From Candidatus Parachristensenella avicola (GTDB lineage Bacteria > Bacillota > Clostridia > Christensenellales > UMGS416): a stretch of DNA of 64,000 nt. Below, piece after piece: positions 5,604-55,486 of this stretch. Location of the stretch: positions 4,568 to 68,567 of the forward strand of contig CAJFUN010000028.1 of assembly GCA_904420205.1 (NCBI GenBank). The letters are read 5' to 3'. Every line of letters starts with the position of its first letter. Positions within the stretch are counted from its first letter, which is position 1. The notes under the pieces were generated by a model that was not told the DNA's origin, made no database searches, and was given only the letters and a program-made list of their open reading frames with translations. Made by a program: the position numbers and the translations under genes.

Positions 5604-6689
5604 CTACTTATCATCCAAATCGTCCCCGGCGTCGTCATCGTCGTCCCCGGCATCGTCGTCATCGCCGTCCCCGGCGTCGTCGTCATCGTCGTCCCCGGCA
5701 TCGTCGTCGTCTCCGGCATCGTCGTCATCGCCGTCCCCGGCGTCGTCATCGTCGTCTCCGGCATCGTCATTGTCGTCTCCGGCATCGTCATTGTCGTCCC
5801 CGGCATCCCCGGCATCCCCAGCATCGTCGTCATCGCCGTCCCCGGCGTCGTCAGCGTCGTCCCCGGCATCGTCGTCATCGCCGTCCCCGGCGTCGTCAGC
5901 GTCGTCCCCGGCATCGTCGTCCCCGGCGTCGTCATCGTCGTCCCCGGCATCGCCGTCCTCGGCGTCGTCATCGTCGTCCCAGTTGTCCTCAGTTCCATGG
6001 TCCCTCTGCCCCGGGTTTTCATTGCCCTCAATATCACTTCGCCCAGGGGTTTGCGCCGGTATAAAATCATCGGGGTTAATCACAATTGTCCATGAAATAT
6101 CAGATGGCTCCTCAGAACTTTCACTCGGTATGACCACAACATTGACACGGTTATCAAAATGTTCTTTTAATTCCGACACTAAAGTTTTCTCAATATCCGC
6201 TTTCCACTTTTCATGCTTAGAGTCCACGGCCAGCATAATTTGGCCGCCCTCACTAAGAAATCCCATGTCCATAGCCCGGTCGCTTAGGTCATCGGATACT
6301 ATTTCAACGGTTTTACCATAGAAGCGATAGTCCTCAATAAGCATTTTACCGTCCTCATTCATGCCTTCTAAGCCGACAATCCGGTTGAAATGGTTCACGC
6401 ACATTTGAACATCGGGGTTAATCCGTATCCGCACCGTTCCTGCTGGTGACCGCCAAAATCCCCAGCATCCAAGGATCATCACGCATAAGCATGCCGCTAT
6501 CGCCGTCCATTGTGTAAAATGCCTTTTATTATCGCGCCGCCTAGCAAGCGCATCCTGAAGAATCACCCGGTCCACTACTTCCCCAACATCATAGCCCAGA
6601 TTCGGGATTTTCAAAAAGCGTCCCTCTTTATCCAAAACGACAGCATAGCTGAAACCGCATTCCACCACAAGATATTCCATCCGCCTCAC
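5604..6689 (-). CDS. rsgI: anti-sigma-I factor RsgI-like, with a ~125-aa poly-Asp (DDDDAG) C-terminal tail
   Basis: The N-terminus (..YAVVLDKEGRFLKIPNLGYDVGEVV) resembles the RsgI N-domain. It has a single TM (WTAIAACLCVMILGCWGFW) followed by VRIRINP (Asn91-Pro92 = 6414-6419). The GTG start overlaps the sigI stop (GTGA); an alternative ATG lies at 6680. Confidence 0.7.
   Translation of the reverse strand: MRRMEYLVVECGFSYAVVLDKEGRFLKIPNLGYDVGEVVDRVILQDALARRRDNKRHFTQWTAIAACLCVMILGCWGFWRSPAGTVRIRINPDVQMCVNHFNRIVGLEGMNEDGKMLIEDYRFYGKTVEIVSDDLSDRAMDMGFLSEGGQIMLAVDSKHEKWKADIEKTLVSELKEHFDNRVNVVVIPSESSEEPSDISWTIVINPDDFIPAQTPGRSDIEGNENPGQRDHGTEDNWDDDDDAEDGDAGDDDDDAGDDDAGDDADDAGDGDDDDAGDDADDAGDGDDDDAGDAGDAGDDNDDAGDDNDDAGDDDDDAGDGDDDDAGDDDDAGDDDDDDAGDGDDDDAGDDDDDAGDDLDDK
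5607..5981 (-). repeat. coding low-complexity repeat (D/A/G); includes a perfect 45-bp tandem duplication at 5821-5910
   Basis: 5821-5865 and 5866-5910 are identical (gcatcgtcgtcatcgccgtccccggcgtcgtcagcgtcgtccccg). Confidence 0.9.
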
Positions 6690-8987: not shown

Positions 8988-10714
8988 AACGAATTTTAAG
9001 CTACCTTAAGCCCTATTGGCTTCTCGCGCTCCTGACGCCCGTTACGATGGTGGTAGAAGTGCTGGTGGACCTCATGCAGCCTACGCTGATGAGCCGCATC
9101 GTCGACGCCGGTGTTCTGGCAGGCGATATGCAGGTGATTATCTCGACAGGGCTGACCATGCTCGGTCTGGTGGTCGTGGGCGGGTTGGGCGGCGTTGGCT
9201 CCGCCGCCTTTGGCAGCATGGCCTCCCAGCGTTTCGGCAACGATCTGCGCCAAGCAGTATTCAGCCGCGTGATGGCGCTCTCTTTCCAGCAGACGGATAC
9301 CTTTACCACCGGCAGCCTGGTGACCCGGCTGACCAACGACTGCCAAATGGTGCAGGAGATGGTCAACCAGGTGCTGCGTATGTTCGTTCGCTCCTTTATG
9401 CTCTTTGCCGGCGGCATTATCATGGCCCTGTCGTTGAATGTGAGCTTCGGGCTGGTGCTGCTGGTAGGCCTGCCGCTTCAGCTCATTATTCTTTTTATCT
9501 TCCTGAAGAAGGCCAGCCCTCTGTTTGGCAAGGTTCAGTCCCGCTTGGACCGTGTCAACTCCGTAGTTCAGGAAAACGTTACCGGGGCCCGCGTGGTCAA
9601 GGCCTATGTGCGGGAAGATTACGAGATTGACCGCTTCACACAGGCCAATGAAGCCCTGGTGGCCACCAATCTTAAAGTGCAAAAGCTGATGAGCCTAATG
9701 ATGCCCATCATGATGATAATCATGAACTTTTCCGTAGTCGCCATTATCATCATCGGCGGCTTTCAGGTAGAGGCCCAGGCCATGCAGGTAGGCCAGGTCA
9801 TGGCCGCCGTCACCTATGTATCCCAAATTCTGATGAGCATGATGATGGTGGCCATGATGTTCCAAATGGTATCCCGGGCCATGGCCTCCGCTCAGCGCAT
9901 CGTGGAGGTGCTGGAGACCGATCCGGCCGTGGTATCCGGCGGCCGGGCCCTCCCTGGGGGCGGCCGCGGCAGCGTCACCTTTGAACACGTCAGCTTCCAC
10001 TATCCCGCTTCCTCCCACCGTCCAGTGCTGGTGGACATTGATCTGGCCATTCGCCCCGGGGAAAACTTCGCCATATTGGGATCCACCGGCTCTGGCAAGA
10101 CTTCCTTGGTGAACCTTATCCCCCGTTTCTACGACGCAAGCGAAGGCACAATCCGGATCGACGGCGAAGACGTACGCGACCTAACGCTTTCCAGCCTGCG
10201 CGCCCGCGTCGGAATGGTGCTGCAAAAAAGCGAGCTTTTCTCCGGTACCATCGCCGATAACATCCGCTGGGGCAACAGCGAAGCTACTGACGACGAAGTA
10301 AGGCAAGCCGCGCGTATTGCGCAAGCGCACGATTTTATCATGGGCTTTTCCGAAGGATACGATACCGTCATCGGGGAAAAGGGTTCCTCCCTCTCCGGCG
10401 GGCAGAAGCAGCGGCTGGCCATTGCCCGGGCTATACTTAAGCGCCCGGAAATCCTTATTTTTGACGACTCCACCTCGGCCTTGGATCTTGGCACAGAGGC
10501 GCGGCTGCAGCAGGCGCTGCGCCAAGCGCTCAAAGGCACGACCGTCATCACCATCGCTCAGCGTGTAGCCTCTGTCTCCAACGCTGACCGGATTGCCGTG
10601 CTGGACCATGGCCGCTTGGCCGCCTGCGGTTCTCACGAGGAACTGATGGCCTCCAGCGACATTTACCAGGATATCTACAGCTCCCAGATGCGAAAGGAGG
10701 CCGTCAATGAGTAA
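8984..10714 (+). CDS. ABC exporter, fused permease/ATPase subunit (type I, heterodimer partner 1)
   Basis: 576 aa. Six-TM N-half, Walker A GSTGSGKTS, signature LSGGQKQR, Walker B ILIFDDSTS. Confidence 0.9.
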   Translation: MKRILSYLKPYWLLALLTPVTMVVEVLVDLMQPTLMSRIVDAGVLAGDMQVIISTGLTMLGLVVVGGLGGVGSAAFGSMASQRFGNDLRQAVFSRVMALSFQQTDTFTTGSLVTRLTNDCQMVQEMVNQVLRMFVRSFMLFAGGIIMALSLNVSFGLVLLVGLPLQLIILFIFLKKASPLFGKVQSRLDRVNSVVQENVTGARVVKAYVREDYEIDRFTQANEALVATNLKVQKLMSLMMPIMMIIMNFSVVAIIIIGGFQVEAQAMQVGQVMAAVTYVSQILMSMMMVAMMFQMVSRAMASAQRIVEVLETDPAVVSGGRALPGGGRGSVTFEHVSFHYPASSHRPVLVDIDLAIRPGENFAILGSTGSGKTSLVNLIPRFYDASEGTIRIDGEDVRDLTLSSLRARVGMVLQKSELFSGTIADNIRWGNSEATDDEVRQAARIAQAHDFIMGFSEGYDTVIGEKGSSLSGGQKQRLAIARAILKRPEILIFDDSTSALDLGTEARLQQALRQALKGTTVITIAQRVASVSNADRIAVLDHGRLAACGSHEELMASSDIYQDIYSSQMRKEAVNE

Positions 10715-12554
10715 TGCAAGGCCTGCCCCACCCAGGGGCCCCGGCGGACCAGGCGGCCATGGGGGGCCTCGCGGAATGGCTATGGTCCGCGAAAAGCCGA
10801 AGGACGTTAAGGGTACGGTTAAGCGCTTGGTGCGCTACATCGGCTCCAGCCGCTATCTCTTCTTCAGCCTGCTGGCCATCATGGTTTTCGTCACGTTGCT
10901 CTCTTTGGCAGCGCCGGCGCTGCAGGGCTATGCTATTGACGCAATTACGTTAAAAGAAGGTCAGCTGCACGTGGATTTCCCCCGGATGGCGTCCATCCTC
11001 ACGCTGCTTTCAGCCGTTTATATCGCCTCCTCTTTGCTAACCTATCTACAGGGGCTCTTTTCGGCTAAGCTCTCTCAGCAGACGGTGCGCGTCATGCGCG
11101 GCGATCTTTTTGAAAAGATCGTCCACTTGCCCATCCGTTATCTGGATACCCATCCGCACGGCGACATCATGAGCCGCATGACAAATGACGTGGAGAACAT
11201 CTCCAATACGATCTCCCAATCCATCGGTTCGCTTTTCTCCGGCGTGCTTACGCTGATCGGGTCTGTGGCGATCATGCTGTACTACAGCCCCATGCTCACG
11301 CTGATCAGCTTTGTCACCGTAATACTCAGCGCCTTGGCCACCCTGGTAATGAGCAAATTTATGCGCAAGTATTTCGCCGCCCAGCAGGCGCTGCTGGGGC
11401 AGCTCAACGGCCAAGTCGAGGAAATGGTCACCGGCTACAAAACCGTGGTCGCCTTCAGCCGAGAGGATACGGCTAAACGCGAATTCAATGAAACCAGCAA
11501 TCGCCTGCAGGATACCGCCATTCGCGCCCAGATCTTCGGCGGCGCCATGGGCCCGCTGATGAACGTCATCGGCAACTTTGGATTTTTGCTTATCGCAGGT
11601 TTTGGTGGCTGGTTCGCCTTGACCGGCGCTATCACCATCGGCACCATTCAGGCCTTCATCCTCTATGCCCGCCAGTTCACCCGGCCCATCAATGAAATCG
11701 CCAACCTATATGGACAGATTCAGACGGCGCTGGCTGGAGCGGAGCGCGTATTCTCCATTCTGGATCATGCCAGTGAGCGTCAGGAAGCTGCGGGCACTTT
11801 AGACGTAGCGCAAGTGAAGGGGGATCTGGATTTCCGCCATATTTACTTTGGCTACGTGCCCGGCGAACCGGTGCTGAAAGATTTTAATCTAACCGTCAAA
11901 AGCGGTCAGAAAGTGGCTATCGTCGGGGCAACGGGCTCCGGCAAAACCACCTTGGTCAACTTGCTAACCCGGCTATATGATATCGACAGCGGGGAAATTC
12001 TGCTGGACGGGCAAAACATCCAGGACATTCCCCTAAGCGAACTGCGCCGTAGCATTGCGATCGTACTGCAAGATACGGTGCTCTTCTCCGACACCATATC
12101 TGCCAACATCCGTTACGGCAGGCTGGATGCCCGCCAAGATGAGGTAGAGGCCGCTGCCGCTACCGCTAATGCCGACCACTTTATCGCCCAGTTGCCCCGA
12201 GAGTATCAAACGCAGCTGAGCGAATCCGGTGGCAACCTGTCCCAGGGGCAGCGGCAGCTCCTTTCCATCGCCCGGGCAGTGCTGGCCGACCCGAAAATTC
12301 TCATCCTGGACGAGGCTACTTCCAGCGTGGATACCCGCACCGAGATGCATATCCAGCAGGCCATGGTTGCGCTGATGGCGGGCCGTACCAGTCTCATCAT
12401 CGCCCACCGGCTATCCACCATCCGGGACGCGGATAATATCGTTGTTATTGAAAACGGCCGCGTAGCTGAAATGGGCAACCACGACCAGCTGCTCTCGGCC
12501 AAAGGCTGCTATTGGCGGCTCTATCAGAACCAATTCGCCGGCATCGCCACCTGA
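10707..12554 (+). CDS. ABC exporter, fused permease/ATPase subunit (heterodimer partner 2)
   Basis: 615 aa. Walker A GATGSGKTT, signature LSQGQRQL, Walker B ILILDEATS. Overlaps the upstream gene by 8 nt. Confidence 0.9.
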   Translation: MSNARPAPPRGPGGPGGHGGPRGMAMVREKPKDVKGTVKRLVRYIGSSRYLFFSLLAIMVFVTLLSLAAPALQGYAIDAITLKEGQLHVDFPRMASILTLLSAVYIASSLLTYLQGLFSAKLSQQTVRVMRGDLFEKIVHLPIRYLDTHPHGDIMSRMTNDVENISNTISQSIGSLFSGVLTLIGSVAIMLYYSPMLTLISFVTVILSALATLVMSKFMRKYFAAQQALLGQLNGQVEEMVTGYKTVVAFSREDTAKREFNETSNRLQDTAIRAQIFGGAMGPLMNVIGNFGFLLIAGFGGWFALTGAITIGTIQAFILYARQFTRPINEIANLYGQIQTALAGAERVFSILDHASERQEAAGTLDVAQVKGDLDFRHIYFGYVPGEPVLKDFNLTVKSGQKVAIVGATGSGKTTLVNLLTRLYDIDSGEILLDGQNIQDIPLSELRRSIAIVLQDTVLFSDTISANIRYGRLDARQDEVEAAAATANADHFIAQLPREYQTQLSESGGNLSQGQRQLLSIARAVLADPKILILDEATSSVDTRTEMHIQQAMVALMAGRTSLIIAHRLSTIRDADNIVVIENGRVAEMGNHDQLLSAKGCYWRLYQNQFAGIAT

Positions 12555-12676
12555 CGGGCCATATTCTTTCAAATCTTTACAGATTTGTCGAATCCTTGCA
12601 ATAGATTTGTTACAGCACTGAAAAACATGGCTGCTATACTGGGTGAGAATAATTCTTGGACGAGGAGGGCTTTGCC

Positions 12677-12811
12677 ATGCTGCAACGCCAGATCCGCCGC
12701 TCCTTGGTGCGTCCTGCTCCGCCGGCCAAAAAGATAGCTGAATGGGCAGCCGGTGCTGTAATGCTGCTGCTATTGCTGCTCGCCCCTGCGCTGATCGGAT
12801 TGCTGCACTAA
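12677..12811 (+). CDS. small (44-aa) single-TM protein candidate
   Basis: Not in the ORF track (too short). My translation is MLQRQIRRSLVRPAPPAKKIAEWAAGAVMLLLLLLAPALIGLLH. GAGGAGG RBS about 8 nt upstream. Followed directly by a terminator. Confidence 0.4.
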   Translation: MLQRQIRRSLVRPAPPAKKIAEWAAGAVMLLLLLLAPALIGLLH

Positions 12812-49345: not shown

Positions 49346-49422
49346 TCTGCAGGAAGCGGCTATAAAAAGGCGTATTCATTGAAACGTCTCCAAGTTTAAT
49401 CCAAAACAATGATTAGCTTACT

Positions 49423-49466
49423 GGGGAATGAGTCCGGCCAAGGCCGGAATCATTCCCCTCGTTTTA
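49423..49466 (+). terminator. intrinsic terminator after the dehydratase gene
   Basis: 17-bp stem with one mismatch (ggggaatgagtccggcc / ggccggaatcattcccc) followed by tcgtttta. Confidence 0.7.
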
Positions 49467-49494
49467 TTGCACATACACATAGAAGAAATATACA

Positions 49495-49523
49495 TTGACA
49501 ATAAAACGAATATTTGATAATGT
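49495..49523 (+). promoter_or_regulatory. sigma-70 promoter of leader copy A
   Basis: TTGACA (49495-49500), 17-nt spacer, TG-a-TAATGT (-10 at 49518-49523). Confidence 0.65.
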
Positions 49524-49622
49524 GAAATTGGATAAAATAACCAAAATTATGACAAATCCTCCGAACTGCTCTGCCCCAAAAGGAGATAAAAGATGAGAAG
49601 GAAGGGAGAAAAAGAAAGCAAC

Positions 49623-49673
49623 CCGGCCAGCCAGGCGGGCGCGAAGCGCTCTGTTTGGTGTGGCCGGTTTTTT
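49623..49673 (+). terminator. leader (attenuator) terminator, copy A
   Basis: Outer stem ccggcca (49623-49629) / tggccgg (49661-49667), inner gcgc-gaa-gcgc hairpin, then T6 (49668-49673). Located between the promoter and the AGGAGG SD of the 49712 gene. Confidence 0.7.
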
Positions 49674-49711
49674 AATAAAGGGGAGCCAAAGGGGACAAAA
49701 AGGAGGAGCGT

Positions 49712-50656
49712 ATGAAAAAGCGGACAAAAGCAGAAGGACAAATCCATGAGAAGGGAACGGAAGGACAAACGAGCCAAGAAAAGAAGGGGCGGCTGGCGAG
49801 GGCGGCTGCAAGAGGGGCTAGTCGGCTGCGGCGGGCGGCAGGCTGGCTGGGGGGAAGAAAGCGATGGGAGAAATGGACCTTGGGATGCGGATGTGCGCTG
49901 GCAGCAATTGCCGCCACGGCGCTGATCCTGCATCTGAACGGATTTGTTTTCGACCACAAATGCCAGCTTCCCAGGGCCGGATCGGTTTACAAAGTCGTTT
50001 ATTCGGATCCGGATCCGAAAAGGGGTGATGTCATTTACCGCGCATTATGCCGGAGTGAACCTACGCCCCCGGATTGTGACTATCCCTGGATATTGGAGGA
50101 CTACGAAGGTGAATTTACACCTGCTCAAGGGATGGGGTACAACATTACCGCACTCTGCGAGGTGGAATACCTGCACATTGTAAACTGTGTACAGGAAAGC
50201 ACCGGGGAGGACTACCGAGCGTCGCAATACAAGCAGCTGTTTACCCTTATGGAATGCCGGGTCATCCGGGTGCTGGCCGAGCGAGAGGACATGATGGAGA
50301 CGCCGCTCCGGGAAGGGGACGTCATAACCGTGTTCCAAAGAGGGAACTCAAAGGTGCAGTATTTTAACACTGCGCCTTATAAGGAGGGGGCACGCGCGGT
50401 GCTTGGCATCCTACCCACCACCTATTGGACCGATCGAAGCCCGGATCAGCTGCGTGTATACAATAGCCAATACAGGGCTATGCATTCCGTCCCGGTTGTC
50501 ATTGGAGAGGACGGGAAAAAAACGATTGAGGGCTTTACGGGATTCCAACTAAGGGATTCGTTCCAGCCGCTGGATCCCAATCGCCCTGCGCTGGACCAGC
50601 TGGGGGAATTTGTGCAGAGGAATATGGACGAGTTTGAATTCGTTACACCTTACTAA
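49712..50656 (+). CDS. hypothetical membrane-anchored protein (basic N-tail, one TM, ~230-aa ectodomain)
   Basis: 314 aa. AAAGGAGG RBS. TM WTLGCGCALAAIAATALILHL. No family recognised. Confidence 0.7.
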   Translation: MKKRTKAEGQIHEKGTEGQTSQEKKGRLARAAARGASRLRRAAGWLGGRKRWEKWTLGCGCALAAIAATALILHLNGFVFDHKCQLPRAGSVYKVVYSDPDPKRGDVIYRALCRSEPTPPDCDYPWILEDYEGEFTPAQGMGYNITALCEVEYLHIVNCVQESTGEDYRASQYKQLFTLMECRVIRVLAEREDMMETPLREGDVITVFQRGNSKVQYFNTAPYKEGARAVLGILPTTYWTDRSPDQLRVYNSQYRAMHSVPVVIGEDGKKTIEGFTGFQLRDSFQPLDPNRPALDQLGEFVQRNMDEFEFVTPY

Positions 50657-50676
50657 AGGGATTGGGGGGGAAGACC

Positions 50677-50796
50677 ATGAAGAAATTGCGGGCGTGTTTC
50701 GCCTCCATCTGTGCTCTGTTGTTTTTCGTCAGTCTGTGCCTTCCTGCCCGTGCCGAGCAGCGGATTACCGGCTGCGGTTTTTTAATGAAAACGTAA
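50677..50796 (+). CDS. 39-aa ORF: signal peptide + 13-aa C-terminal peptide (candidate secreted peptide)
   Basis: Not in the track. My translation is MKKLRACFASICALLFFVSLCLPARAEQRITGCGFLMKT. A G-rich RBS (ggggggg) lies 6 nt upstream. Its 3' end overlaps a weak hairpin + T6. Confidence 0.35.
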   Translation: MKKLRACFASICALLFFVSLCLPARAEQRITGCGFLMKT

Positions 50797-50806
50797 AGAA
50801 TATATA

Positions 50807-50835
50807 TTGAAAGTAAAACAAACATCTGATAATAT
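50807..50835 (+). promoter_or_regulatory. sigma-70 promoter of leader copy B
   Basis: TTGAAA (50807-50812), 17-nt spacer, TG-a-TAATAT (-10 at 50830-50835). Confidence 0.6.
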
Positions 50836-50935
50836 GAAATTGGATATAATAACTAAAATCATAACGCAATCCTCCGAACGGCTCTGTCTCAAGAGGAGAT
50901 AAAAGATGAGAAGGAAGCGAGAAAAAGGAAGCAAC

Positions 50936-50986
50936 CCGGCCATCCAGGCGGGCGCGAAGCGCTCTGTTTGGTGTGGCCGGTTTTTT
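50936..50986 (+). terminator. leader (attenuator) terminator, copy B
   Basis: Same hairpin as copy A (one substitution in the internal part) followed by T6 (50981-50986). Confidence 0.7.
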
Positions 50987-51169
50987 AATAAAAGGGGAGC
51001 CAAGAGGAACAAAAAGGAGGAGAACATGAAAAAGAGGACAGAGCAAGAACCCGTGACGTGACAAGGAAGCAAGCAGCCCCGGCGCGTGGGTATTATGGTG
51101 AAGAGGCGTAACCTCAAAGGAGGAGCCGGTTCTCAAACAATTTACCCAGATATGATAAAGGAGGCACAT

Positions 51170-51643
51170 ATGAACGATTCTGATTGGGCGCTTATACCTG
51201 ACTTCTACAAATTCCCGTTCATAGTACGAAATCTTTATATGATCGAGCTGCTTCTAACTTTGCCAGCCCTAGCTATTGAAATAATACATTACAAGAATAC
51301 AACCATTTTTACGTTTTGTATATTATACATTATAATTAGCCTGATTTGTTATATTTTGACGCGCATGAAGCTTAAGTATACAGATGAAGGACTTATGAAA
51401 TATATAAGAGTATATGATTGTTATTCATTTATAATTGCAGTAATAGGTATCGCGGCATTAATATTAAGATGGAATATGTATATAACTTACGAAGAATTTG
51501 AAATTCTCTTTTTAGTGTGGTTTATTCCAATTCAAATATTTAGAATTTGCTTCTCACGATTTTATCAGAACAAGTATCTCCCCAAATTTGCGTCAGAGCT
51601 TGACGAGAAGTCGGCCACCGCTAAAAAGGAGAAAGAAAAATGA
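51170..51643 (+). CDS. AT-rich 4-TM membrane protein, unknown family
   Basis: ATG 51170 (MNDSDWAL..) has an AAAGGAGG RBS. 157 aa, about 30% GC by eye. Its stop overlaps the next start (ATGA at 51640-51643). Confidence 0.7.
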   Translation: MNDSDWALIPDFYKFPFIVRNLYMIELLLTLPALAIEIIHYKNTTIFTFCILYIIISLICYILTRMKLKYTDEGLMKYIRVYDCYSFIIAVIGIAALILRWNMYITYEEFEILFLVWFIPIQIFRICFSRFYQNKYLPKFASELDEKSATAKKEKEK

Positions 51644-54438
51644 AAAAGCGTTATATATTGAAGGGACTATCCTTGGGATTAGTGTTCTGTTTGCTTATCT
51701 TCCTGTGCCCGAATCCCTCCTACGCAGAAAACGCCGAATGGAAAGAATACACCTACGAGACAACCCGGGACGGCCGGCCTGCCATTGAAGTGCACCGCAT
51801 AAAGAAGGGACAGGCGCACGTTCTGTTGTATGTGGACGGCATCCTCGTGGAAGAGGCCCATGCAAACGCCTATACAAAGCAGGTATCCCATACTGTGCAT
51901 GACGGGCGCAACCTACAGGATGCCCCTGTTATCCGTAAAAATGCGTCTGCCGGTTTCACTGTTACTACCCGCCATGCCGCATCCAAAGCTCCGCTGAAAA
52001 AAACAGAAACACTCATGCCAATTCCTAATCCGGAAGAAGAAGCCGCAAAAGCGCCCCAAACTATCGATACTTCCCCTTCGACTCCAGCTGCCTCAACTGA
52101 AACTACCGGAAGCACAAGCGCTCAAACGGATGAAGCGGCTACCCAGTCCAGTACTCCTACCGGTTTAGCTGTGCCGCTTGCCACGGACAGTATAGCGGAT
52201 GGTCAGCCACCTTCCGGCGGCATACCGTCCAACTCGCTTCACGCCTTTGACAGCGTTGGGGATCAGGATGAAATCAGCCCTTCAACTGCTCCGAATCACA
52301 CGGGGGATTGCCCGCCAGAGGACGAAAACTGTACAGAATCCCATACGGCGGATATACCTGTCCAGGACACGCCCGATTCCGAGGATTCATCTGAAGCTAT
52401 TGGCCTGCCAGAACTATCCTCTCCTCAGAATGCTGGCGCTGTTTCCTATCCGCCGCTGATCGAAACAGGGAGCGAACCGCTTACCAGCAACGCAGGTCTT
52501 ACCGCCGCCGGAGACGGTTGGTATTCGTTAGGCTGGGCCGGCGGATACATAGAAGCGCCCTATATCTATGGGAATCTGCAGCGCCAGTACTCGACATCTT
52601 CAGAGAGGGTCCATGTATTCAATTTTGAAATGAATGAGACGCGAATAACGGTTATATCCATTATTGAGGCTGTGCTAACAACTGCAGGATTATTTGATAT
52701 GATTTTATCCGGCGCTATAAATCCTAGAGATGTTGTTAGCTATATACTGGCTGCAATTACATTTGTAGGTGATATTATTCATGAGACTCAAACAGTAGAA
52801 GTCGACGCGCTCCACTATACATACAATTACCGTACCATGGTCAACGGGAACAGCCATTATACGAGCCAGCGGCAAACAGAATATGTGTATACATACAACA
52901 AAACTACCGGAGTAAGAGAACTGAAATACCTAGGATATACCATTGCGGGCGCTTTACATAACAGCGACATGGTGGAATTAGGAATTGACCACTACTTAGC
53001 CACCGAGCACACGACGCATGTTGATTGCCCCATTTGCCCAATATGCGGAATTCAGCGCATGGGTTATTCTCATCTTTTCAGCGGTACATATGAAACCACG
53101 CCGGCACAACATATCCAGACATGCATACGTTGTGGGATAAAAGAACCGGCTGATCACATATTTAGCCCCGCGCAAAAAAATGATGCCCAAACACATAAAC
53201 GAACCTGTGCCGTATGCGGCTATATTGAAATGACCAATCATGCCTTTGGCGCGTATAGTACACCTCTTGGCGCTGACATTCACCAAAGAACATGCTCTGG
53301 ATGCGGTTATATTGATTCTGGCGCCCATGCTTGGGTATGCAGCAGCGTCAGCGCAAGCCAACATGCCATGACATGCAGCGTATGCCAAGCCACAAGTACA
53401 GTGAATCATACATGGGGATCGTATGCTATGGTTAGCAATTCACAGCATAGACGAACCTGCACGGCGAATGGTTGCACCCAAATTGAGACGTCGTCCCACA
53501 CCATCACCTCGACCCGACCGCTGACGGAAGCGGGCCAGGAAGGGTATCATGAGAACTACTGCGCCACCTGCGGCGGCCGCTGGAACGAGGCCCACACCTA
53601 TGGCAGCTATACCGATAGCTCCGCCAGCGTCCACGTGCGCACCTGCGTCAAGTGCGGCAAGGAAAACTATCAGGCCCATTCCTGGAGCAGCTATAGCTCC
53701 ACCGGCTCCACCCAGCACCAGCGCACCTGCACCGTCTCCACCTGCGGACGCACCCAAACCAGCAACCATACCTGGGGCAGCTACAACTACCTAAGCGCTA
53801 CGTATCACAAGAGGAGCTGCACCGCCTCGGGCTGTACTGCCTCGCAGAACGCCGGCCACAGCATTACCCGCGTCACCTCGCTGGATGGGACAAACCACCA
53901 GAACTACTGCTCCACCTGCAACGGATACTGGAACGTGGCCCATACTCTGACGGTGCTTACGCCCTATGGCAACGCCACCAAGCATCTGGCAGGCTGCACA
54001 AAGTGCAATTATTCGATTGCCCAAAACCATACCTTCGGGGCATGGGTCAATTACAGCAGCACCCTGCACCGGCACCAATGCACCGGCTGCAAGGAATACC
54101 ATACGGCCAGCCACGGCAGCTATGGCTCCTGGACCAACTACTCTTCCAGCCAGCACCGCAGAAAGTGCGGCTCCTGCACCTATTACCAATACGGCAGCCA
54201 TGGCAGCTACGGTTCCTGGGCCAATTATTCCTCCAGCCAGCACCGCAGAAAGTGCGGCTCCTGCACCTATTACCAATACGGCAGCCACATCTATGGCTCC
54301 AACAGCTACTATTCCTCCACCCAACACCGCAAGAAGTGCGCCAGCTGCCCCCGATACGTCTATGCGAATCACAGCTACCAGTATTCCGGCGGCTACCTGC
54401 GCTGCACAGGCTGCGGCCATGAGAAGCCCTATGCGTAA
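51640..54438 (+). CDS. large secreted protein with a C-terminal array of ~17 His/Cys (zinc-knuckle-like) repeats
   Basis: 932 aa. Signal peptide (..CPNPSYA/EN), an S/T/P/E/D-rich linker, a central region with two hydrophobic helices, then the repeat array (aa 458-932). Confidence 0.85.
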   Translation: MKKRYILKGLSLGLVFCLLIFLCPNPSYAENAEWKEYTYETTRDGRPAIEVHRIKKGQAHVLLYVDGILVEEAHANAYTKQVSHTVHDGRNLQDAPVIRKNASAGFTVTTRHAASKAPLKKTETLMPIPNPEEEAAKAPQTIDTSPSTPAASTETTGSTSAQTDEAATQSSTPTGLAVPLATDSIADGQPPSGGIPSNSLHAFDSVGDQDEISPSTAPNHTGDCPPEDENCTESHTADIPVQDTPDSEDSSEAIGLPELSSPQNAGAVSYPPLIETGSEPLTSNAGLTAAGDGWYSLGWAGGYIEAPYIYGNLQRQYSTSSERVHVFNFEMNETRITVISIIEAVLTTAGLFDMILSGAINPRDVVSYILAAITFVGDIIHETQTVEVDALHYTYNYRTMVNGNSHYTSQRQTEYVYTYNKTTGVRELKYLGYTIAGALHNSDMVELGIDHYLATEHTTHVDCPICPICGIQRMGYSHLFSGTYETTPAQHIQTCIRCGIKEPADHIFSPAQKNDAQTHKRTCAVCGYIEMTNHAFGAYSTPLGADIHQRTCSGCGYIDSGAHAWVCSSVSASQHAMTCSVCQATSTVNHTWGSYAMVSNSQHRRTCTANGCTQIETSSHTITSTRPLTEAGQEGYHENYCATCGGRWNEAHTYGSYTDSSASVHVRTCVKCGKENYQAHSWSSYSSTGSTQHQRTCTVSTCGRTQTSNHTWGSYNYLSATYHKRSCTASGCTASQNAGHSITRVTSLDGTNHQNYCSTCNGYWNVAHTLTVLTPYGNATKHLAGCTKCNYSIAQNHTFGAWVNYSSTLHRHQCTGCKEYHTASHGSYGSWTNYSSSQHRRKCGSCTYYQYGSHGSYGSWANYSSSQHRRKCGSCTYYQYGSHIYGSNSYYSSTQHRKKCASCPRYVYANHSYQYSGGYLRCTGCGHEKPYA
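53011..54435 (+). repeat. tandem ~26-30-aa coding repeats with consensus H-[TS]-[WF]-G-S-[YW]-x3-S-x2-Q-H-x-R-x-C-x2,3-C-x6,7
   Basis: 17 CxxC/CxxxC pairs, each preceded by H-x3 and followed by H after about 7 residues, e.g. QHRRKCGSCTYYQYGSH and THKRTCAVCGYIEMTNH. Includes an 87-bp tandem duplication at 54109-54282. Confidence 0.9.
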
Positions 54439-54465
54439 GCCTTAAACCGCTCCCCCTATCACAAA

Positions 54466-54501
54466 AACCGTCTTCATCCGCAAGCGGATGAAGACGGTTT
54501 T
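54466..54501. terminator. bidirectional terminator between convergent genes
   Basis: Perfect 16-bp stem aaccgtcttcatccgc / gcggatgaagacggtt, with an A-run upstream and T-run downstream. Confidence 0.9.
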
Positions 54502-54508
54502 CTCTAAA

Positions 54509-55486
54509 TCATGGATCTAACAGTTCGTCCAGCTCAAACCATCGGTCGGTGATCCAGCCTATCTCATCCCGGAACCGGGCGACCTTGGGAGACACCGATC
54601 CGAACAGCTTGGGCTGCATCCACCAGGGGAATTCCAGGCACCAGACAAGGCGCAGCGCATCGGCCGGTGACGGCGCCGGGCGCACCCGCCCATAGCCTTC
54701 CAGAAAGGCGCAGACTTTTTCCATCGCCAGCGCTCCATCCACCAAAGCGAAGGACAGCAGCGCCCGGCCCACGTCATGGCACAGGTATCCATACTGGTTG
54801 CGGTCAAAATCGAGAAGCGACAACACGCCCTTTTCGTTAAAAAGCATATTGTCCGGCGTAAAGTCCTCATGGGACAGCCCCATGGGCAGCCGGTCAAAAA
54901 AGGCCGGCTCCAGCGATTTCAGGATGTTCTTTGAAGCGGCCATGGCCCGGGACAGAGCCGCTGGGCCGCTCTCTGCCCCTTGATTGGATTCATAGAAGGC
55001 CCAAAGCCCATCCAGTATCCGGCGGCCGCCAAGCGGCGGGTAGCCCCGCGCCCCTTGGACGGGCATCGCCTCAAGGGCCTGCTGCATCCGCCCGCAGATC
55101 ACGCCCAGGCTATATAGCTGGCCGGTTGTAACCGTCTCCCAGCTTTCCTGGCGTCCTGGAGAAAAATCCATGACCATATAGCAGGTAGCGTCATCCAGCC
55201 TGCGCAGGATCGAATCCCCGGCCTTCCAGATATGGGGGCAGGGGATGCCCGCCTCCTCCAGCAAAAGCTGCCGCCCAAGGGACGCTTCGACCTCGTCAAG
55301 CTGCTGCGGCCCAAAGCGCTCGACGCTATACTGCTTGACCAGCACCGGGCCCCTGGGGCCCTGGAGCTTCCATTTCCTGTTCAGCCAGCCACCTTCCACC
55401 GGTACGGCGCCTGCCGCATCGAGCCCATAGCTTGTCCAAAGATCGCTGGCTATGGATCCGGCTATGGCTGTTTCTGCGCCCGTCAT
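54509..55486 (-). CDS. phosphotransferase-family kinase (APH / homoserine-kinase-II-like)
   Basis: Catalytic loop SHEDFTPDNMLF (HxDxxxxN) and LLDFD. Confidence 0.7.
   Translation of the reverse strand: MTGAETAIAGSIASDLWTSYGLDAAGAVPVEGGWLNRKWKLQGPRGPVLVKQYSVERFGPQQLDEVEASLGRQLLLEEAGIPCPHIWKAGDSILRRLDDATCYMVMDFSPGRQESWETVTTGQLYSLGVICGRMQQALEAMPVQGARGYPPLGGRRILDGLWAFYESNQGAESGPAALSRAMAASKNILKSLEPAFFDRLPMGLSHEDFTPDNMLFNEKGVLSLLDFDRNQYGYLCHDVGRALLSFALVDGALAMEKVCAFLEGYGRVRPAPSPADALRLVWCLEFPWWMQPKLFGSVSPKVARFRDEIGWITDRWFELDELLDP

Follow-up and report, generated by a model that had tools for sequence, protein, structure and literature searches.

In the pyrBI operon of E. coli (PMC5021804, citing Roland et al. 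1988), a leader open reading frame (ORF), pyrL, has its own Shine–Dalgarno (SD) sequence upstream of an intrinsic terminator, runs through that terminator and ends near the start of the structural gene. Regulation there involves no antiterminator helix, and a closely following ribosome blocks the hairpin (PMC5021804). Here we describe a module that shares the first arrangement and, in the model that we propose, also the second: a unit of ~250 bp made up of a promoter, a leader of ~185 nucleotides (nt), a terminator-like hairpin with a U-tract and the SD sequence of a downstream 'cargo' gene. It occurs twice in a 64,000-nt stretch of contig CAJFUN010000028.1 from Candidatus Parachristensenella avicola (the window; positions count from its first letter, and features lie on the plus strand unless stated otherwise). 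The module has no sequence relationship to pyrBI, belongs to a Clostridiales host and precedes cargo unrelated to pyrimidine synthesis, and no U-rich pause region sensitive to nucleoside triphosphates was found upstream of its hairpin. It also adds a predicted long-range helix against the cargo SD sequence.

The tet(M) leader of Tn916 (Ptet/orf12, srn0030) likewise resides in Gram-positive hosts and has a rare-codon leader ORF that overlaps terminator structures (bioRxiv 10.1101/2021.03.24.436905). Termination is its default outcome, giving leader RNAs of ~100–230 nt, and the speed of leader translation is the proposed trigger (bioRxiv 10.1101/2021.03.24.436905, citing Su, He & Clewell 1992). 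A role of the leader peptide was left unconfirmed by toeprinting or start-codon mutation (bioRxiv 10.1101/2021.03.24.436905). Sequence and cargo are unrelated to those of the module described here, which is present in multiple copies and heads several cassettes. Attenuators of resistance genes in Firmicutes (vmlR, tlrB/yxjB, mef/mel and erm) also place an upstream ORF (uORF) and an intrinsic terminator in the 5′ leader, which makes expression dependent on the behaviour of the ribosome on the uORF (PMC9226507, PMC6851288, PMC4335068). In these leaders, antiterminator and terminator helices exclude each other and the uORF lies upstream of both, whereas here no competing helix was found and the uORF crosses the terminator. 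In multigene surface-protein families such as those at the vlp and vsp loci of Mycoplasma, a highly conserved block of promoter, 5′ untranslated region and N-terminal coding sequence heads otherwise divergent genes of a variable locus and is kept uniform by recombination. Those blocks are without terminator or uORF, and they switch through homopolymer tracts or site-specific inversion, neither of which was seen here. The module is unclassified and its regulatory character plausible; we would place it, as a variant, with the leaders controlled by a terminator, where the coupling-type attenuators are nearest to it in logic.

Two modules with a terminator-like hairpin

Copy 1 of the module (49484–49738) comprises promoter, leader and the first ~9 cargo codons; copy 2 spans 50796–51054. 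Both were delimited by repeats (families D1–D3 for copy 1), by alignment and by nhmmer (E = 4.5e-81 and E = 6e-84, respectively). The repeat finder returned same-strand direct-repeat blocks ~1313 nt apart (49487–49553/50799–50865, 84%; 49555–49701/50868–51014, 90%; 49668–49735/50982–51049, 79%), and MAFFT aligned the copies end to end, with similarity fading ~25 nt inside the downstream ORF. An initial annotation of this DNA had reported two same-strand segments ~1.3 kb apart that align over their full length, on which both programs agree, and a core (49582–49679 versus 50895–50992) identical at 95 of 98 positions, a figure that our recount reproduced. Shuffled sequence is expected to contain the 45-nt hairpin sequence not once, yet the window has it exactly twice, and an nhmmer profile of the module detected no third copy there. 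Nine metagenome contigs yielded at least 14 copies, full or partial, reached via the contigs of homologues of the 314-amino-acid (aa) cargo protein behind copy 1, via a second cargo family and through one metagenome pattern match (copy-bearing contigs listed: L001–L004, L007, L011 and L039–L042). It is probable that the module is a cis-acting, terminator-containing leader.

The promoter of copy 1 (49495–49523), read directly, is of the sigma-A type, with the −35 element TTGACA at 49495–49500, a 17-nt spacer, TG at 49515–49516 and the −10 element TAATGT at 49518–49523; transcription is inferred to start near 49530. In copy 2 (50807–50835), the promoter scan recognized TTGAAA (50807–50812), a 17-nt spacer and TG-n-TAATAT (TAATAT at 50830–50835), with 9 of 12 matches plus the TG. 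The −35 element, 17-nt spacer and TG-n-extended −10 element that had been annotated are present in both copies; the copy 1 promoter, however, went unflagged by the scan, and its −10 element matches TATAAT at only three of six positions. A TTGA..-17-TGATAAT pattern is retained in all copies. Promoter-like sites were no more frequent in the scan than in shuffles, so that the promoters stand as consensus matches only. In the 38 nt that separate the U-tract from the SD sequence of the cargo, neither direct reading nor the scan revealed a promoter. An imperfect inverted repeat lies across the promoter of copy 1 (49492–49523, ACATTGACAA ... TTGATAATGT), and in copy 2 (50804–50835) its C/G pair becomes T/A (ATATTGAAAG ... 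CTGATAATAT). This repeat could be an operator, an idea weakened by the broken pattern in L003 and in copy L042_b and by the phylogenetic linkage of the copies.

Downstream of the promoter, a weak 5′-proximal stem–loop of 4 bp (UUGG-N9-CCAA, 49528–49544) appears in minimum free energy and consensus folds. It is followed by the box AAUCCUCCGAAC (49555–49566), which includes an anti-SD-like UCCUCC at 49557–49562; comparison of the copies identified these 12 nt as the longest invariant block in the 5′ half of the leader. The cargo SD sequence AAGGAGGAG (49700–49708) and the cargo start ATG at 49712 (49700–49714 together) are likewise invariant in all copies. Direct reading found the UCCUCC box, the leader SD sequence with its ATG, the hairpin with U6 and the cargo SD sequence where the initial annotation had placed them. 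The leader (49531–49711) is 66% purine, compared with a window average of 48%, and has seven GGA motifs where ~2.9 are expected. Such a composition is compatible with Rho avoidance in a species with runaway transcription (PMC13323073) or with binding of a GGA-recognizing regulator.

Folding of copy 1 yields an intrinsic-terminator-like element (49623–49673), in which a hairpin at 49623–49667 (−33.2 kcal/mol) is followed by T6 at 49668–49673. Its 20-bp stem is GC-rich with G-U pairs, has one bulge and a GAA loop, and leads directly into U6. The counterpart in copy 2 (50936–50986), identified from the repeat and by folding, consists of a hairpin at 50936–50980 (−33.0 kcal/mol) and U6 at 50981–50986. 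All 14 copies have a hairpin of −30.6 to −37.8 kcal/mol with U6–7 directly after the stem, that is, the GC-rich stem–loop and adjoining U-tract on the transcribed strand by which intrinsic terminators are recognized in sequence. Reading and folding thus confirm the terminator-like hairpin previously annotated between promoter and cargo SD sequence, and we predict that it is a strong intrinsic terminator.

Substitutions in the hairpin are informative about what is being maintained. The three in L011 fall in the loop, in the bulge and in one pair that changes from G-U to G-C, and a hairpin as stable is left by just 0.1% of triple substitutions drawn at random, or 0.6% when these are restricted to transitions; for copy L001_c1, 2.5–6.6% of random substitutions give equal stability. 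As the substitutions in both copies are all non-synonymous in the overlapping reading frame and yet keep the stability, they point to a constraint on the RNA rather than on the peptide. A strand asymmetry through G-U pairs is clear only for the window-type hairpin (−33 versus −23 kcal/mol) and not for the other variants.

Rfam gave no match at the gathering score in the whole window. A permissive scan of 49350–51250 produced no match overlapping the transcribed leader or the hairpin; its matches (E ≥ 0.28, 15–20 bits against cut-offs of 45–230) were minus-strand chance matches at the terminator of the upstream gene, among which those to NrrF and SurA extend through the copy 1 promoter, and one inside the 314-aa gene. 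Folds of the nascent RNA from start site to loop, in seven copies, contained no antiterminator helix competing for the 5′ arm of the terminator: the arm forms only tiny local hairpins and has no upstream partner. Nor was a conserved multi-helix or aptamer-like fold found upstream of the hairpin. The lack of both an antiterminator helix and a conserved domain weighs against assigning the leader to the riboswitches, the T-boxes or the switches of the erm/vmlR type. The initial annotation had matched the leader to no known riboswitch, T-box or ribosomal-protein leader, and the Rfam scan that it asked for agrees; its description as riboswitch-like is unsupported, there being no structure that competes with the terminator, no conserved multi-helix fold and no covariation.

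Three other assignments were rejected. A mobile repeat (a miniature inverted-repeat transposable element or an insertion sequence remnant) would not explain the absence of terminal inverted repeats and the constant orientation at the 5′ ends of units; transposon-like ends at further copies, which had been proposed as the sign of such a repeat, were not seen. An integron attC-like site is at odds with cassettes that have their own promoters, with the absence of an integrase and with the lack of a GTTRRRY core on direct reading. An insulator against read-through from upstream does not fit a terminator that lies downstream of the module's own promoter.

A leader ORF through the hairpin and a predicted mask on the cargo start

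The initial annotation overlooked that the leader ORF runs through the hairpin to the cargo start. According to the ORF list, the uORF of copy 1 (49580–49715) has the SD sequence AAGGAG at 49580–49585, an ATG at 49593 and 40 codons, ending in a TGA at 49713–49715 that overlaps the cargo ATG (ATGA). In copy 2 (50906–51061), the uORF starts at ATG 50906 and extends for 51 codons to 51061, in frame with the ATG of a relic ORF at 51026. The uORF SD sequence and ATG are invariant in all copies (AAGGAG-N7-ATG, or GAGGAG-N7-ATG in some), the ATG lies 30 nt upstream of the stem, and in each of the 13 copies that could be scored the frame leads into the hairpin, the shortest uORF ending at codon 22 within the 3′ arm. 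From uORF ATG to cargo ATG the distance is 120 nt in ten copies, 119 nt in two, which have the ATGA overlap, and 117 nt in one; in the 120-nt copies the uORF is in frame with the cargo, and gene callers fuse both ORFs. An SD sequence and start codon upstream of the terminator and a frame leading into or through the hairpin are two of the features by which a coupling-type attenuator is recognized, and the module has both.

The peptide encoded by the uORF is unconserved, with frameshifts (in both L001 copies, for instance), mostly non-synonymous changes and a TGA in L039_b and L039_c. We therefore rejected a conserved small protein encoded by the uORF; any role of the uORF would lie in its being translated. 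A protein-database search with the uORF-peptide alignment returned no match despite existing fused gene calls, probably owing to a word-index limit. Codons 2 and 3 are AGA AGG, the rarest arginine codons in host genes (2.8% and 6.5% of arginine codons), and vary between copies, with CGA in L039_b and GGA in L042_b. In most copies the uORF SD sequence and AUG lie within a local hairpin of −12.6 kcal/mol.

In folds of the full-length leader, the UCCUCC box pairs with the cargo SD sequence with a probability of 0.76–1.0 in five of six copies, a level reached by 0–3% of upstream shuffles. Consensus folds extend the pairing, with a (C/U)AUG adjacent to the box on its upstream side pairing with the cargo AUG region. 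For the terminated RNA, folding predicts a paired rather than a free box.

These elements suggest a default-off attenuator that is relieved by translation of the uORF, which would also unmask the cargo SD sequence; we put the probability of this full model at roughly 40%. Transcription from the module promoter would stop by default at the U-tract behind the 20-bp stem, a first lock. In read-through RNA, a long-range helix joining the UCCUCC box and the upstream CAUG to the cargo SD GGAGGA and AUG would form a second. The uORF is the most likely key, because no RNA alternative to the terminator exists. Ribosomes that follow RNA polymerase along the uORF would open the terminator stem and, on reaching the cargo start, displace the anti-SD strand. 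Both the transcription and the translation of the cargo would be set by the efficiency with which ribosomes initiate on the uORF and translate it, on which the rare arginine codons at its start and, in most copies, its hairpinned SD sequence and AUG may bear. Every transcription unit of this strain-variable accessory locus for membrane and secreted proteins is headed by the module. The copies would be kept alike by gene conversion and would serve as recombination handles for the swapping of cargo. Transcription from the promoter, termination at the U-tract, uORF translation and its antitermination effect are each inferred from the order and sequence of these elements. Precedents exist for the central step: a translating ribosome suppresses the pyrL terminator (PMC5021804), a terminator just after a translated ORF is suppressed (PMC4824070), and in the model of the tet(M) leader (bioRxiv 10.1101/2021.03.24.436905), from a Gram-positive host, a uORF with rare codons and a terminator act together.

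Several observations weigh against this model. On direct reading, none of the three frames meets a stop codon within the GC-rich hairpin, which makes a uORF that spans the hairpin weak evidence by itself. RNA polymerase runs ahead of the ribosome in many Gram-positive bacteria of low GC content (PMC13323073), so that a coupling-type attenuator would need a pause site; we recognized no U-rich pause tract upstream of the hairpin and identified no polymerase pause site there. The role of the tet(M) leader peptide is itself contested experimentally (bioRxiv 10.1101/2021.03.24.436905). Some copies retain the module with weakened parts, namely a C.A mismatch within the stem of L039_b and L039_c and a box reduced to UCCUCU in L039_b. 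The covariation check proposed in the initial annotation, carried out on the collected copies, found a double change in none of the 43 consensus pairs and a score indistinguishable from that of shuffles; its power is low with copies only 0–15% diverged, and for that reason no helix is proven. Finally, gene conversion alone could explain the high identity of the core.

Concerted evolution of the copies and rival readings

Between the window and L011, which represents the same chromosomal site, identity is 94% in the flanking genes, 75% in the intergenic DNA just upstream, 87% in the promoter and 89.5% in the leader, and falls to 29% aa identity in the cargo. Across the copies, the promoter-proximal part is 5–31% diverged, and the purine tract and hairpin 0–6%, bar one copy with indels. 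Both L001 copies share the derived form GC--GACATAGG at a place where both window copies read G(G/C)GAGAAAAAG. The two L041 modules are 100% identical over ~330 nt, with genes behind them that are ~55–90% identical, and the L007 copy is a mosaic, equal to L011 in its 5′ half and to window copy 2 in its 3′ half. Shared derived indels, identical leaders and mosaics indicate gene conversion and mosaic recombination. On these signs, the copies evolve in concert by gene conversion, which explains part of the uneven conservation. The unevenness that had been read as the mark of a selected cis element is therefore real and general across copies, but is unclean evidence of selection.

Recombination has also left traces at the module edges. 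ORFs of 77 aa (L003, 689–922) and 62 aa (L041, 7670–7858), which are N-terminal fragments of large secreted proteins, end just upstream of a module, and in L003 the units also follow one another in a different order from that in the window. Such arrangements indicate that unequal recombination has occurred at the edges of modules, with the proviso that short-read contigs break inside the repeat and that permuted or fragmentary unit orders may be misjoins.

All copies share one orientation and lie at the 5′ ends of units, and all contain the SD sequence, ATG and first codons of the cargo. The cargo directly 3′ of the copies differs and belongs to the 314-aa family, to a 438–483-aa family or to a relic ORF followed by a 157-aa transmembrane (TM) gene. 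In L011, one module precedes a cargo whose gene call, counted from the uORF ATG, has 438 aa and whose aa identity to the 314-aa protein of the window is only 29%. L041 has a different neighbourhood, with two modules before paralogous genes called as 483 and 465 aa, and L039 has three modules within 3.2 kb. The module heads at least five cassette kinds on other contigs, which strengthens the earlier idea of a small dedicated regulon. The L042 cargo gene has a longer G-run (~190–215, GGGGGCGGGGGGGG) than L011 at 6240–6262, and its gene call is split there; either a tract prone to slippage or an error of sequencing or assembly could explain the run.

Searches beyond the cargo contigs added little. 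BLASTN of the module against phage and plasmid collections gave no match, two pattern scans of IMG/VR viral contigs and a box-to-uORF pattern scan of 185,579 GTDB species genomes found no copy, and an nhmmer profile detected no further or diverged copy at the loci of 27 related species. A hairpin pattern scan of JGI metagenomes returned one true copy (L007) and four chance matches. The recovery of further copies, as had been proposed, succeeded through the cargo contigs and failed in the rest of the window and in the 27 relatives. The known range is narrow, with nine short contigs from human-gut and other metagenomes that belong to a single uncultured, UMGS416-like Clostridiales lineage.

The evidence for concerted evolution lends itself to another explanation, in which the module is mainly a homogenized recombination handle with a constitutive promoter and a leaky terminator that would do no more than lower expression, without conditional control, and its identity reflects only gene conversion and recent cassette shuffling. 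The shared L001 indels, the identical L041 leaders beside cargo of roughly 75% identity, the L007 mosaic and the rearrangement breakpoints at module edges (the 77-aa L003 and 62-aa L041 fragments) are what it would predict. It does not account for hairpin stability kept through independent substitutions or for an invariant box complementary to the cargo SD sequence, and a terminator of −33 kcal/mol with U6 after a near-consensus promoter would be costly unless it could be bypassed; we regard it as unlikely and as the foremost of the alternatives. Ranking just behind it is an attenuator opened by a trans factor (an antiterminator protein, processive factor, small RNA or ligand) instead of by a ribosome on the uORF, which would turn on all cassettes jointly and make them a true regulon. 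Such a factor would fit a hairpin conserved in sequence and not just in structure (0–6% divergence, against 5–31% in the promoter-proximal part), the 12-nt invariant box, the lack of an internal antiterminator, the placement of the same module before many units and a leader with 66% purine and seven GGA motifs, a composition used by GGA-binding regulators. Against it, the island encodes no regulator gene, the leader belongs to no Rfam family and has no known protein-binding leader motif, there is neither an aptamer-like conserved fold nor covariation, and gene conversion can account for the sequence conservation of the hairpin. A more specific version, in which a protein, RNA or metabolite reads the AAUCCUCCGAAC box together with the hairpin and the module represents a new class of leader RNA in an antitermination regulon, is a little less probable again; if it were true, all cassettes of a hypervariable secreted/surface-protein locus would be switched on together.

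Two further readings change what the module is thought to produce. The upstream ATG might be the true start, giving the cargo a basic, cytoplasmic N-terminal extension of 40 residues with the hairpin inside the coding region and no dedicated regulation. The uORF ATG is indeed in frame with the cargo ATG in ten of the thirteen copies, gene callers fuse the ORFs (P0002 of 356 aa, P0005 of 438 aa and P0006–P0008), and the extension is basic, like an authentic N-terminus. The frame is broken, however, in copy 1 of the window (win_c1) and in L001_c1, where the 314-aa cargo is nonetheless intact and 96% identical between strains; both L001 copies have a frameshift, and L039_b and L039_c a TGA stop. 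Substitutions are nearly all non-synonymous and fall at positions neutral for the RNA structure, and the internal ATG is preceded by an invariant, perfect SD sequence, AAGGAGGAG, at 5-nt spacing. We consider this start assignment doubtful. Small RNAs of Firmicutes typically have CCUCC-type seeds that target SD sequences. The main product could accordingly be a terminated RNA of ~145 nt, possibly with a dual function, whose CCUCC seed acts on SD sequences in trans, with expression of the cargo as incidental read-through; the promoter and strong terminator define a discrete short transcript, the seed is of this general SD-targeting type, and terminated tet(M) leaders of ~100–230 nt accumulate (bioRxiv 10.1101/2021.03.24.436905). 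For the tet(M) leaders, however, no activity in trans was found (bioRxiv 10.1101/2021.03.24.436905), the cargo genes have no promoter of their own and so require read-through, the module always includes the cargo SD sequence, ATG and first codons, and the box is predicted to be paired in the terminated RNA. A small RNA as the main product is, in our judgement, improbable. The uORF-relieved attenuator remains the reading that we prefer.

The accessory island, its cargo and wider implications

Both modules and their cargo lie in an accessory island (49346–54510) between an MR_MLE (enolase superfamily) gene and a convergent APH-family gene, both of which are core genes. The island was delimited by comparison with L012, the reference metagenome-assembled genome (MAG) of the same species, UMGS416 ('uncultured Clostridiales bacterium'), with 98% aa identity in MR_MLE. 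In L012 (9150–9330), the MR_MLE and APH genes are adjacent with a single common bidirectional terminator and the 5.1-kb island is absent; since the flanking genes adjoin in UMGS416, 49346–54510 is an insertion. Its GC content is 42–55%, compared with ~58% elsewhere. No integrase, att-like repeat or transposase was visible at the island edges, and no regulator gene was found within the island. More distant MR_MLE relatives (75–81%) come from Oscillospiraceae and Clostridia MAGs, none of which has the module. The terminator hairpin of the MR_MLE gene (49423–49458 versus 5822–5860 in L011) shows a compensatory change, C-G in the window and U-A in L011, within intergenic DNA that is otherwise 75% identical; real helices can covary there, unlike in the homogenized leader.

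Unit 1 begins with cargo 1a (49712–50656), a bitopic membrane protein of 314 aa, of unassigned family, with one TM segment at residues 57–75. Only five homologue clusters were found among 5.8 billion proteins, and an AlphaFold model built on a 10-sequence alignment had a mean predicted local distance difference test (pLDDT) score of 52, too poor for a fold search. On L010 (1–1453, 47% aa identity), two tandem paralogues of the 314-aa family are separated by a short spacer with an ordinary SD sequence and have no module, so that the module is not ancestral to this family. Next in the unit is cargo 1b (50677–50796), a 39-aa ORF from the ORF list with a signal-peptide-like N-terminus (MKKLRACFASICALLFFVSLCLPARA-EQRITGCGFLMKT), a type of ORF conserved behind the 314-aa gene in L001, L003, L004 and L041. 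These 39–46-aa ORFs (also L001 6966–7105, L004 928–1047 and L041 ~5970–6090) share the tail ...ARA-EQRITGCGFLMKT, in which ITGC resembles a lipobox and C-G-F-L-M a 5-residue thiolactone-type peptide; they could encode a secreted signalling peptide or a tiny lipoprotein. There is no AgrB-like gene nearby. A weak hairpin, GCAGC/GCUGC followed by U6 (50757–50783; direct reading, repeat family D5), lies at the end of the unit.

The initial annotation had placed a gene behind each copy. This holds for copy 1, with its real 314-aa gene, whereas the 'downstream CDS' of copy 2 is a relic ORF of 11 codons (51026–51061, MKKRTEQEPVT*), a shortened form of the cargo N-terminus MKKRTKAEGQ in an alignment of 17 full or partial copies. 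The same 'class B' 3′ end is found in L001_c2, L007, L039_b and L039_c; being conserved in other strains, the relic form is an established arrangement and not fresh decay. From 51063–51079 onward to 51135, the sequence (AAGGAAGCAAGCAGCCC...) is similar to the beginning of the hairpin region in the leader (82%, repeat family D4) and is followed by a second AAAGGAGGAG; the segment 51063–51135 may be the vestige of an older, hairpin-deleted leader before the 157-aa gene.

Unit 2 has its first real gene from 51170 onward. This gene encodes cargo 2a (51170–51643; ORF and TM prediction), a 157-aa protein of unassigned family with four TM segments and its own SD sequence at 51159–51166. It is followed by cargo 2b (51640–54438; ORF and prediction), a secreted protein of 932 aa with a signal peptide and Cys/His-rich C-terminal repeats. 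These repeats are numerous, follow the pattern H..R.C..C... and give a weak, sub-threshold match to DUF7479. In the L041 homologue of cargo 2b (9395–12799), the 3′ 940 nt are 88% identical and the N-terminal half is different, with a metzincin-type HEMGHVLGMTH motif and a Peptidase_M10 match (E = 5.9e-5) just below the cut-off, suggesting domain swapping in a secreted protease-like protein. No cargo protein belongs to a Pfam, NCBIfam or PADLOC family, and with bitopic, polytopic or secreted predictions throughout, the cargos are unclassified envelope proteins, as annotated before.

The module is an example of how, in duplicated regulatory DNA, gene conversion can produce a pattern that looks like conservation by selection. 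If the model of a uORF-relieved attenuator is true, the module would be a compact leader with two locks, a terminator and a masked SD sequence, opened by a single uORF, and a portable 'expression head' for interchangeable cargo. It would then be a Clostridial addition to the very small set of attenuators without an antiterminator helix, and would bear on whether transcription–translation coupling can regulate genes in Firmicutes. The shared leader would also provide a handle on when strain-variable envelope and secreted proteins are expressed in the gut.

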